Positions 22,857 to 25,662 of a stretch of DNA of 64,000 nt are shown piece by piece. Every line of letters begins with the position of its first letter. Within the stretch, counting starts at the first letter, position 1. Source of the stretch: an uncultured Acidimicrobiaceae bacterium. GTDB lineage: Bacteria; Actinomycetota; Acidimicrobiia; Acidimicrobiales; RAAP-2. The translations under genes and the position numbers were made by a program. The notes below the pieces were generated by a model. The model was not told the DNA's origin and did no database searches. It was given only the letters and a program-made list of their open reading frames with translations. The stretch lies in the NCBI GenBank assembly GCA_963704585.1, contig OY969919.1, positions 2,617,621-2,681,620 on the forward strand, written 5' to 3'.

Positions 22857-23420
22857 TTAGGAGTGCGGGAGCGGCACCGGTCGCTCCGCCGGGGCGAAGC
22901 CGATGCCCGCGACCGGCGCCGGCCCAGCCGTCGCCTCGCGTGCGCCCCGGGTGGGGAAGACGACGCGCTCGTACACCGCGTACTTGGCGAGCCAGAGGAC
23001 GACGCTGATCACGAGGAAACCCGCGGCCACGATGGCCACGTGGAACGGCGCAGCGCGTGGGACGACCGCGGCGACCAGACCGGTGGCGATGCTGGAGGCC
23101 GCGATCGAGACGGCGGAGACCGTCCAGTAGAGGACGATCTGCCGCCCCACCCTGCGGCGCGGCGCCTCGCGCCAGATCCAGTAGCGGCTGAGGAGGTAGG
23201 AGGGCACGGTTCCGGCGAGGTTCGCGGCGAGGGCGGCGGCGGTGGCGCCGAGGAGCCCGCGACCGTAGAGCACGACGAGGGTGATCTCGCTCACGCCGAA
23301 CGCGAGCACCGAGGTCGCGCCGTACCGCACGAGCCGGCCGATCCCCGCCCGCCGGGCGCGGAGCCGGGCGCCGCGGTTCAGCAGTGGATCCCGCACTCGG
23401 TCTTCTCCGATCCCGGCCAT
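22857..23420 (-). CDS. GtrA family membrane protein
   Basis: RYGATSVLAFGVSEITLVVL…SYLLSRYWIWR and four TM helices. Start uncertain (ATG 23420 or GTG 23396). Either choice overlaps the cysH 3' end. Confidence 0.7.
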   Translation of the reverse strand: MAGIGEDRVRDPLLNRGARLRARRAGIGRLVRYGATSVLAFGVSEITLVVLYGRGLLGATAAALAANLAGTVPSYLLSRYWIWREAPRRRVGRQIVLYWTVSAVSIAASSIATGLVAAVVPRAAPFHVAIVAAGFLVISVVLWLAKYAVYERVVFPTRGAREATAGPAPVAGIGFAPAERPVPLPHS

Positions 23421-24103
23421 CGGCCTGCACGCGCGTCCTCGGTCGGCCCCACCGGCCGCGTGGTCGGTGCGCACCCGATCGAGCGGTAGCCGCGGGCCTT
23501 CAGCGGATGGACGGGCAGTCCGTGGTCGGCTTCGTACGCGGCGACGTCGGCCTCGCTCCAGCGCGCGAGGGGATTGACCTTGACCGCGCCATGGCGTGCG
23601 TCCCACCCGACGGTCGCCGTCCTCGACCGCTGCACGGTGTCGACGCGCTTGATGCCGGTCATCCACGCGCTCCTCCCCTCGAGCGCACGGGCGAGGGGCA
23701 GCACCTTCCGCCGCTCGCAGCAGTCGGCGGAGCCACACGGCGGAGCCGCCGTGCACGGGTCCGGTCCGACGATCCGAAGGTTGAGCTCGTACCGGGCGCG
23801 GACCTGCTCGACGAACGCGAGCGTCTCGGGGAAGTGGGCGCCCGTGTCGAGGAAGACGAATTCGACGCCCGGGTCGACACGCGTCGCGAGGTCGACGAGG
23901 ACGCAGTGCTGGAAGGAGGTCACGACCGACAGGCCGGCGCCGAACCGTAGGCACGCCCACCGCACGACGTCACGTGCCGGCGCGAGCTCGTAGCGGTCAA
24001 AGCGCTCGTCGTCCCCGTCGATGCGCCGGGGCCGCCACAAGGTGTCGCACGGCACGGCACCGGTCGTCCCGCCCGGTTCGCTCGTCTGATCGGCGCGTCG
24101 CAC
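23378..24103 (-). CDS. cysH: Phosphoadenylyl-/adenylyl-sulfate reductase (thioredoxin-dependent, CysH family)
   Basis: [12 protein letters not shown], a CC pair, SIGC…, and C-terminal KTECGIHC (the ECGLH catalytic motif). GAGGAGGAGGC RBS before GTG 24103. Confidence 0.88.
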
Positions 24104-24474
24104 GCCTCCTCCTCAAGCGGACGGACCGGCCCGATGGCCCGTCTGGCAGACGGCGTCCGCTGCTCCAAGCGTGCGCCGGTCGGACGGCGTTCTCCAGGGA
24201 CGAAGGTCCTGACAACCCCTGCACAGCCCGCTGCCAGCGGGCGCCAAGGATGCGGGCGGGACGGACGGGGGCGACTGCCACGGGAGGCGGTCCTGCGGAA
24301 CGACGCTGTGAGGCGTGCCACCGCGACCAGGGCGGATGTTCGCCGCGCCGCGCGCTCGGGCGACGCCTCCTCGGTCGCCCAGGTCGTGACCCAAGCCTCT
24401 ACCGAACGGTCCATGGTGTTCGGTACAACGGGAAGCGGGACGCTCCGTCCTGCACCGACGACAACGGAGGAGCC

Positions 24475-25662
24475 ATGCGCATCTTGGTCCTGGGAGGCGA
24501 CGGGTATCTCGGATGGCCCACCGCCCTGCACCTCTCGGCGGTCGGGCACGACGTGGTGATCTCCGACAACCTGGCCCGCCGCGGCTACGACGACGAGCTG
24601 GGGGTGACGAGCCTCGTCCCAATCGCGTCGCCGCAACGGCGCATCGCCGCGTGGGAGCGCGTCTCGGGACGGCGCATCCCGTTCCTCGTCGGCGACCTCA
24701 CCGACGCCGGCTTCACCCACGATCTCATCGCCGACGCGCGGCCGGACGCGGTCGTGCACTTCGCGGAGCAGCGTTCGGCCCCCTACTCGATGATCGACCA
24801 GGCGCACGCGGTCTACACCCAGTCGAACAATGTGCTCGGAACCCTCAACCTGCTCTACGCGATCGCGGAGACGGATCCGGAGATCCACCTCGTGAAGCTC
24901 GGCAGTATGGGCGAGTACGGCACACCGAACATCGACATCGAGGAGGGCTGGCTCGACGTGACCCACAAGGGGAGGACCGACCGTGTGCTCTACCCGAAGC
25001 GGCCCGGCTCCTTCTACCACCTCTCGAAGGTCCACGACAGCCACAACATCGAGTTCGCGTGCCGGGCATGGAACCTGCGGGCCACCGATCTCAACCAGGG
25101 GATCGTCTACGGGCAGGAGACCGAGGAGACGCGTCGCGACCCGGACCTCGTCACCCGGTTCGACTACGACGCGGTCTTCGGCACGGTCCTCAACCGGCTG
25201 GTGGTCGAAGCCGTGTGCGACCACCCGCTCACGGTCTACGGCAGCGGCCGTCAGATCCGGGGCATGCTCGACATCCGCGACACGGTGGAGTGCCTGCGGC
25301 TCGCGATCGAGCACCCGGCTGCACCCGGCGAGTTCCGGGTGTTCAACCAATTCACCGAGCAGTTCTCGGTCATCGAGCTCGCCGGACTTGTCCGTGAGAC
25401 CTACCCGGGGCCGGTGCGCATCGAGCTGGTCGACAACCCGAGGGTCGAGGCCGGCGAGCACTACTACCGCGCCGCGCACACCCACCTGCTCGACCTCGGT
25501 CTCGAACCGCACATCCTCGGTGAGACGCTCATGACGTCGCTGCTCGCCATCGCGCACGCGCACCGCGAGCGTGCCGACCGCTCGCTCTTCGATCCGTCGG
25601 TCCGCTGGACCGCGACGGCCAACCGCGTGGGACCGGCCGTCCCGACGGGCGCGGCAGCCTGA
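24475..25662 (+). CDS. sqdB: UDP-sulfoquinovose synthase (SQD1/SqdB family)
   Basis: Near-collinear with recalled SqdB/SQD1 blocks: [110 protein letters not shown]. Confidence 0.9.

Follow-up and report, generated by a model that had tools for sequence, protein, structure and literature searches.

A cysH-gtrA/sqdB module from an uncultured Acidimicrobiaceae bacterium suggests a lipid-carrier route for sulfoquinovose

We analyzed a 64-kb stretch of contig OY969919.1 from an uncultured Acidimicrobiaceae bacterium, hereafter the window, which contains a divergent arrangement of three genes. On one strand lies sqdB, encoding a predicted UDP-sulfoquinovose (UDP-SQ) synthase; on the other lie cysH, encoding a reductase of the adenosine 5′-phosphosulfate (APS)/3′-phosphoadenosine 5′-phosphosulfate (PAPS) family, and gtrA, encoding a small membrane protein. 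Our preferred reading of the sequences, to which we assign a probability of about 0.5, is that CysH, SqdB, a family 2 glycosyltransferase (GT2) paired with GtrA, and a GT-C-type transferase would bring sulfoquinovose to the cell envelope on a lipid carrier, rather than into the classical plant-type sulfolipid. The components all come from known families. What is new is their combination: a sulfo-sugar synthase is wired to a lipid-carrier glycosylation module, into which cysH is inserted in one lineage. All scans of the window were limited to its called genes and its sequence. As the G+C content is ~70%, false open reading frames (ORFs) crowd the raw ORF list, and real genes were picked by their third-position GC (GC3) profiles, which left three within the studied stretch. 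Their Pfam domains are Epimerase/GDP_Man_Dehyd (sqdB), PAPS_reduct (cysH), and GtrA_DPMS_TM (gtrA). The positions given to the three genes and to the cysH-sqdB gap in a first-pass annotation were correct, with the gap being exactly 371 bp. Correct, too, was the overlap of gtrA with the 3′ end of cysH, which spans 43 nt if gtrA starts at the ATG at 23420, or 19 nt if it starts at the GTG at 23396, which has GGAG upstream. This overlap implies co-transcription. The long ORF 22857..23960 was rejected as a single gene, since coding-type GC3 is found only in its 3′ part, up to ~23420.

SqdB matches Arabidopsis SQD1 (Protein Data Bank (PDB) entry 1QRR) with an E-value of 1e-150 across residues 2–380, at ~60% identity over 379 residues. 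The first-pass assignment of ORF 24475..25662 to the SQD1/SqdB group is hence upheld over the full length of the protein. The next-best structures are those of GalE, which match at only 1e-9 and only in the N-terminal domain, setting SqdB apart from ordinary UDP-sugar epimerases. The NAD-binding motif GxxGxxG is present as GGDGYLG at residues 7–13. The fingerprint of UDP-SQ synthases is [ST]MG...Yx3K (PMC8987622), and SqdB carries it as Ser144-Met145-Gly146 and Tyr181-His-Leu-Ser-Lys185, with His182 also kept. Mutagenesis of Agl3 has identified His95, Arg101, Met145, Tyr182, and Lys186 as essential (PMC4388408); their counterparts in SqdB, His95, Arg100, Met145, Tyr181, and Lys185, are all in place. 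Thr145 of SQD1 is replaced by Ser in SqdB. Of the 120 best homologues, 45 have Ser and 74 have Thr at this position, and Agl3 with the T144A substitution retains activity (PMC4388408). The top NCBIfam match by far is NF041015, which covers the full length with 453.9 bits and stays below the equivalog cut-off of 575; many of the 120 best homologues are labelled UDP-sulfoquinovose synthase by JGI. The start codon is preceded by a Shine-Dalgarno-like sequence (GGAGGAGCC-ATG), and a look-up of the exact protein returned no record. As judged from its residues, SqdB is a genuine UDP-SQ synthase orthologue with catalytic and fingerprint positions intact. It resembles SQD1 of Arabidopsis, SqdB of cyanobacteria and Rhodobacter, and Agl3 of Sulfolobus in overall identity to SQD1, in the GxxGxxG motif and the fingerprint, and in the essential His and Arg. 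It differs from them in the Ser at the Thr145 position, in its score below the NF041015 cut-off, and in its genomic partners, which are cysH and gtrA instead of sqdX, sqdDC, or an archaeal agl cluster.

The cysH-gtrA/sqdB triad recurs in four further assembled genomes (locus labels L081, L001, L087, and L090), in three of which the flanks differ from those of the window. Specifically, L081 encodes an SqdB 83% identical to that of the window and shows full synteny with it. The SqdB proteins of L001, L087, and L090 are ~75% identical where measured; the flanks of L087 and L090 are unrelated to those of the window by Pfam, and L001 has no flanking gene family in common with it. The three-gene unit is thus kept while its neighbours change, which points to a functional linkage. 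A metagenome scan with GtrA yielded 48 loci, and in 15 of them cysH lies directly upstream of gtrA. Wherever sequence exists beyond cysH at these cysH-gtrA loci, a divergent sqdB is found; it is full-length in L095, L100, L103, L104, and L131, and in L101 the contig ends within it. In L091, a 64-residue N-terminal remnant of sqdB (2660..2857) lies immediately before cysH-gtrA in the same orientation, and this copy of the module seems to have decayed or been rearranged. The arrangement has a limit in lineage: in L085, whose SqdB is 78% identical, sqdB is followed by gtrA without cysH, and in L086 sqdB stands alone. The synteny check therefore turned out positive beyond the closest relative and in different flanks, within a restricted lineage.

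In cysH-carrying relatives, sqdB is adjoined by a gene for a lipoprotein of glycoside hydrolase family 5 (GH5), which is endoglycoceramidase-like (NF051847, 198 bits, below cut-off). It is located at 11548..13152 in L087, 2599..4203 in L090, and 3914..5593 in L095, and is also found in L100, L103, L104, and L131. In L098, L099, and L116, the GH5 lipoprotein gene adjoins gtrA alone, and it is absent from the window. The protein hints at a glycolipid or a glycan-trimming step.

Beyond this lineage, a scan of species-representative genomes matched sqdB in at least 596 genomes, the best 80 of which are all Actinomycetota, including Acidimicrobiia, Nitriliruptorales, Pseudonocardiaceae, Kribbella, Nonomuraea, Streptosporangiaceae, and Solirubrobacterales. 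The earlier view that SqdB would be unusual for an actinobacterium is not sustained by these matches; in this phylum sqdB is common and unstudied rather than rare. Neighbours were counted at these best 80 GTDB species loci by neighbour clustering and tblastn. A GtrA homologue lies beside sqdB in 63 of the 80 loci, typically divergent from it and directly upstream. A GT2 of ~300 aa with a DADGQY motif, of the DPMS/PpgS/ArnC type, is a neighbour in 60 loci, a GalE-like short-chain dehydrogenase/reductase in 51, and a PMT-like multi-pass membrane module in 35. Structures matching the GT2 are Pyrococcus DPMS (5MLZ) and ArnC, and its NCBIfam matches are dolichyl-phosphate hexose transferase, PpgS, and AglJ; all best matches are polyprenyl- or dolichyl-phosphate glycosyltransferases. 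The presence of GtrA, a GT2 of this type, and a PMT-like module beside sqdB amounts to the layout of a polyprenyl-phosphate-sugar system. In some Acidimicrobiales loci, BacA/UppP and an LCP ligase are found beside sqdB instead. L001 is the only one of the 80 loci with cysH at sqdB.

In many loci, the PMT-like module shares the reading frame of the GT2, and its matches to PF02366 are weak and below the gathering score. In L002 (7068..9287), L010 (7093..9432), L017, L026, and others, from Pseudonocardiaceae and Nitriliruptorales, the two share one frame of ~740–780 codons. Such a frame may encode a putative fused glycosyltransferase that both loads and uses the carrier, and may be one gene or two. 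A GT4 recurrent near sqdB in Pseudonocardiaceae was considered as SqdX and rejected, as it is a glycogen synthase of the glgA_Coryne type (569 bits vs a cut-off of 302).

We then inspected the window for transferases. No glycosyltransferase Pfam domain, GT4 and GT8 included, was found in the called genes of at least 180 aa across the 64 kb, and tblastn of the GT2, GT4, and GT-C proteins flanking sqdB in the relatives gave no match in the window. The first-pass statement that no GT4 or GT8 lies within ~10 kb hence extends to any glycosyltransferase family across the window. The lipid-carrier route that had been suggested along with it gains strongly, if indirectly, from the GtrA/GT2/PMT-like layout in most other Actinomycetota, but with the transferase absent from the window, the route is read from the relatives.

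The GtrA-like protein covers the whole PF04138 model (GtrA_DPMS_TM, positions 1–117) with 34.9 bits against a cut-off of 26.1. A crude hydropathy scan shows two hydrophobic blocks, at ~33–66 and 95–151, each of which fits two helices. The GtrA family is tied to polyprenyl-phosphate-sugar systems, and the Pfam name GtrA/DPMS_TM agrees with a function as the membrane partner of a GT2. The metagenome loci L113, L114, L119, L121, L124, and L130 contain GtrA homologues 47–58% identical to that of the window near secE-, nusG-, rplK-, rplA-, and rplJ-like genes (identified by eye), which points to another, housekeeping context of this GtrA subfamily in the secE-nusG-ribosomal protein region.

CysH scores 125.6 bits with PF01507 and 218.8 bits with NF002537 (phosphoadenylyl-sulfate reductase), passing the cut-off of 154 of the latter. 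Its best PDB match is 7LHR (E = 1e-43), which we take to be the M. tuberculosis enzyme. The C-terminus, KTECGIHC, has the catalytic Cys motif ECG[LI]H. The iron-sulfur motifs read C-x4-CC...SIGCAPTT, where the CC pair and the first Cys of the CxxC motif are present and the second is Thr. This Thr (SIGCxPTT instead of SIGCxPCT) occurs in 118 of the 120 best homologues, and all 120 have an additional Cys, placed four residues ahead of the CC pair. Judged by this pattern, the extra Cys may replace the lost CxxC Cys as a ligand, and the pattern, noted in the window CysH and in homologues P0122–P0240, suggests a re-wired cluster ligation, C-x4-CC...C, across APS reductases of the Acidimicrobiia type. 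We considered the Cys-to-Thr change as a sign of a degenerate or specialised paralogue and rejected this idea, because it is shared by 118 of the 120 homologues, including operon-borne housekeeping ones, and is accompanied by the invariant extra Cys. Compared with the assimilatory CysH of M. tuberculosis (7LHR) and P. aeruginosa (2GOY), the window CysH has the same PAPS_reduct fold, CC pair, and ECG[LI]H Cys, and passes the NCBIfam cut-off; it differs in the Thr at the second CxxC Cys and the extra Cys before the CC pair, and its gene stands with gtrA and sqdB, not with sulfite reductase.

Three of the nearest CysH homologues are located in operons of cysH and sulfite reductase (sir) with a sirohaem synthase gene close by, one of them also with cysD/N-like genes, and are ~57–59% identical by alignment. 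The window CysH is by these neighbours a normal assimilatory type of Acidimicrobiia. The first-pass proposal of a dedicated sulfite supply is accordingly plausible rather than established. In a rough, midpoint-rooted neighbor-joining tree without support values, the sqdB-linked CysH proteins group separately from the sir-linked ones, in a clade of 25 leaves to which two stand-alone cysH genes also belong. A cysK-like gene (PALP) and an adjacent cysE-like gene (hexapeptide acetyltransferase) are found 9.3 kb downstream of sqdB, so that genes of sulfur assimilation are loosely grouped in the region.

The proposed pathway is as follows. CysH would convert APS to free sulfite, and SqdB would combine sulfite and UDP-glucose into UDP-SQ. 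A GT2, not encoded in the window and presumably located elsewhere in the genome, would transfer sulfoquinovose from UDP-SQ to a polyprenyl-phosphate carrier. The GtrA-like four-helix protein would be the membrane partner of the GT2 and/or would aid the transmembrane movement of the charged lipid-linked sugar. A GT-C-type membrane transferase, likewise encoded elsewhere, would then move the sulfo-sugar to an extracytoplasmic envelope glycoconjugate. As neither transferase is in the window, we infer these last two steps from the relatives, whereas the first two follow from strong family assignments. In the Acidimicrobiia-like lineage, cysH, which is divergent from sqdB, would be translationally coupled to gtrA, tying sulfite production to its consumption. 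A wider reading, which falls somewhat short of an even chance, is that many Actinomycetota make polyprenyl-phosphate-sulfoquinovose (polyprenyl-P-SQ) and use it to decorate an extracytoplasmic envelope polymer or glycoprotein with a sulfonated sugar, and that one lineage of Acidimicrobiia, to which the window belongs, wired in cysH for sulfite. Among the carriers are the cultured genera Kribbella, Saccharopolyspora, Amycolatopsis, Nonomuraea, and Actinopolyspora, together with Acidimicrobiia and Solirubrobacterales.

Two known groups of systems come closest to this scheme. In M. tuberculosis, PpgS (Rv3631, a GT2), the small membrane protein Rv3632, and the GT-C Rv3779 decorate arabinogalactan with galactosamine via polyprenyl-phosphate-GalNAc (PMC3485146). 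The same three-part logic is seen in 60 of the 80 sqdB loci, with a GT2, a GtrA-family protein, and often a PMT-like module, and PpgS is the second-best NCBIfam match of the relatives' GT2, albeit with 92 bits vs a cut-off of 370. The differences are that the donor would be UDP-SQ, which has an anionic sulfonated sugar, and that the window holds only the small membrane protein, without GT2 and GT-C. The phage and enterobacterial GtrA-GtrB-GtrC system, which glucosylates the O-antigen, and the ArnC/ArnEF/ArnT system, which modifies lipid A, also join a GtrA-family protein with a polyprenyl-phosphate-sugar pathway, and the GT2 of the relatives matches ArnC structures. Unlike them, the window gtrA has no adjoining equivalent of gtrB or gtrC, the envelope is that of a high-GC Gram-positive bacterium, and the module includes a nucleotide-sugar synthase and a sulfite-forming reductase. 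In open-access full text, we found no paper that joins sqdB or UDP-SQ with GtrA, polyprenyl carriers, Acidimicrobiia, the listed actinomycete genera, or Gram-positive glycoconjugates.

Several points weigh against the carrier route. Neither the window nor its cysH-carrying relatives have a GT2 or GT-C at the locus, which makes the key transferase hypothetical for the window organism. Relatives of GtrA (41–61% identity) are also present without sqdB, so that GtrA is not specific to sulfoquinovose. The 25-leaf CysH clade includes the stand-alone cysH genes L088 and L089. A search for sequencing runs holding the region listed none, which we count on the same side. Lastly, we know of no report, and our search found none, of an envelope polymer with sulfoquinovose in any actinobacterium. 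The assimilatory character of CysH belongs here as well, and it leads to a rival view, in which cysH is the single housekeeping APS reductase of the cell and its position reflects at most co-regulation in response to sulfur supply, with no dedicated source or channel of sulfite. This view conflicts only with the clause on dedicated supply, not with the carrier route. It draws on the common Acidimicrobiia type of the protein with its nearest homologues in cysH-sulfite reductase(-cysDN) operons, on the SIGCxPTT and C-x4-CC motifs, which being shared by 118–120 of 120 homologues are no mark of a specialised paralogue, on cysK and cysE downstream, and on the stand-alone cysH genes of related genomes. 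We still deem it unlikely, though a serious contender, given that in five or more genomes, three with flanks unrelated to those of the window, and on several metagenome contigs, cysH runs divergently from sqdB and either overlaps or abuts gtrA, as if selection held the three genes together. The separation of the sqdB-linked from the sir-linked CysH proteins, in the midpoint-rooted tree without support values described above, may point the same way.

Another explanation holds that the product is an ordinary sulfolipid: an unlinked SqdX/SqdD-type or other diacylglycerol glycosyltransferase would make sulfoquinovosyl diacylglycerol (SQDG) or another sulfoquinovose glycolipid, with GtrA unrelated or aiding the lipid to cross the membrane. 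The absence of a nearby transferase proves little in this respect, since several cyanobacteria carry sqdB and sqdX at unlinked loci (PMC13436972), and the endoglycoceramidase-like GH5 beside sqdB in the cysH-carrying relatives hints at a glycolipid. Set against this are the lack of GT4 and GT8, and so of the SqdX/SQD2- or SqdD-type enzymes of the classical SQDG pathways (sqdB-sqdX or sqdBDC/sqdA), in the 64-kb window, and the partners kept by sqdB in the 80 species, which are GtrA and a polyprenyl-phosphate-type GT2, not an SqdX-like GT4. The sole recurrent GT4 near sqdB is the glycogen synthase, and the known ties of the GtrA family are to polyprenyl-phosphate-sugar systems. We therefore regard the ordinary sulfolipid as improbable. 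More improbable by far is that SqdB supplies a soluble product or the sugar of a natural product, or acts as a UDP-glucose 5,6-dehydratase. Agl3 does yield UDP-glucose-5,6-ene when sulfite is left out (PMC4388408), and sqdB is followed in the window by genes for a SnoaL-like protein and an aldo-keto reductase. These two neighbours are, however, kept in the closest relative only, a sulfite-forming enzyme is encoded alongside, and the Pfam scans of the window found no polyketide, non-ribosomal peptide synthetase, or other natural-product genes nearby. The carrier route to the envelope is the reading that we prefer.

The region between cysH and sqdB (Table 1) has a TACAACG motif (window 24420..24432) ~45 nt upstream of the sqdB ATG, which is common to the window, L081, L087, L001, and L090. 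The longer blocks CTCCAGGG.CGAAGGTCCT and CAGCGGGC.CCAAGG are common to the window and L081. Going by this conservation, the motif and the blocks may act as promoters or operators. An Rfam scan of 21500..26500 found no family and gave one chance-level small RNA match (E = 0.7). A consensus scan gave no sigma-70 promoter-like site; its two terminator-like hits are weak, and one lies within cysH.

Table 1. Genes and other features of the 64-kb window
Feature	Position	Strand	Basis and remarks
Sulfotransfer_4 protein	3764..4390	-	PF17784, 201 bits
MMPL-family transporter	18014..20344	-	divergent from the TetR gene
TetR regulator	20349..20990	+	
VOC/glyoxalase-family gene	22415..22825	-	PF00903; follows gtrA on its strand after 31 bp; doubtful operon member, possibly a passenger
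gtrA-like, small membrane protein, 187 aa (ATG 23420) or 179 aa (GTG 23396)	22857..23420	-	PF04138
cysH, APS/PAPS reductase family, predicted sulfite-forming, 241 aa	23378..24103	-	PF01507, NF002537
Divergent cysH-sqdB intergenic region, 371 bp, presumed promoters	24104..24474	.	read from sequence
sqdB, predicted UDP-sulfoquinovose synthase, 395 aa	24475..25662	+	1QRR match, GC3 0.92
SnoaL-like gene	25691..26062	+	PF12680; follows sqdB on its strand after 29 bp; doubtful operon member, possibly a passenger
cysK-like (PALP)	34963..36042	+	adjacent to cysE-like
cysE-like (hexapeptide acetyltransferase)	36045..36746	+	
IPT/TIG-domain large protein	36996..38582	+	also PKD and NHL/lactonase
IPT/TIG-domain large protein	38984..40447	+	
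IPT/TIG-domain large protein	45578..47476	+	

The other genes of the window fall on both sides of the triad. On the gtrA side, the neighbours are VOC, two TetR regulators, MDMPI, MMPL, GH4, and glucose-6-phosphate dehydrogenase; on the sqdB side, they are SnoaL-like, aldo-keto reductase, alcohol dehydrogenase, luciferase-like, Nramp, MgtE-like, and an amino-acid permease. The VOC gene keeps its position in L081, the closest relative, alone, and is not found there in L087 and L090; the position of the SnoaL-like gene is likewise kept in L081 only. The MMPL-TetR pair is located 2.5 kb beyond the gtrA side; its position is kept in L081, and it has no wider link to sqdB. MMPL proteins in other actinobacteria export envelope lipids. 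The Sulfotransfer_4 protein, whose gene lies beside a pair of ABC-2 transporter genes and a gene for a TetR regulator, is a second sulfur-transfer function in the window, dependent on PAPS. The three large IPT/TIG-domain proteins are probably secreted or surface-located.

Sulfoquinovose is viewed as a product of phototrophs, in the form of SQDG, and of a few archaeal N-glycans, and global models of its cycling start there (PMC13436972); a 2026 review describes its biosynthesis as the SqdB-SqdX pathway of phototrophs (PMC13436972). If the carrier route is true, heterotrophic, non-phototrophic Actinomycetota with a conserved sqdB-gtrA(-GT2-GT-C) module would be a source of sulfoquinovose in soils and waters that has so far gone unrecognised. 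The route would further include a new lipid-linked intermediate, polyprenyl-P-SQ, which to our knowledge has not been described before. Its end product would give the Gram-positive envelope a modification that is free of phosphate and permanently anionic, which could matter under phosphate limitation and for interactions with phages and antibiotics. The in vivo sulfite source of SQD1 is still open (PMC4388408), and cysH joined to the module would offer a simple genetic system for the question of how SqdB is supplied with sulfite. The main reason for interest is that the full cluster is present in culturable actinomycete genera, which makes the proposed route testable in culture.

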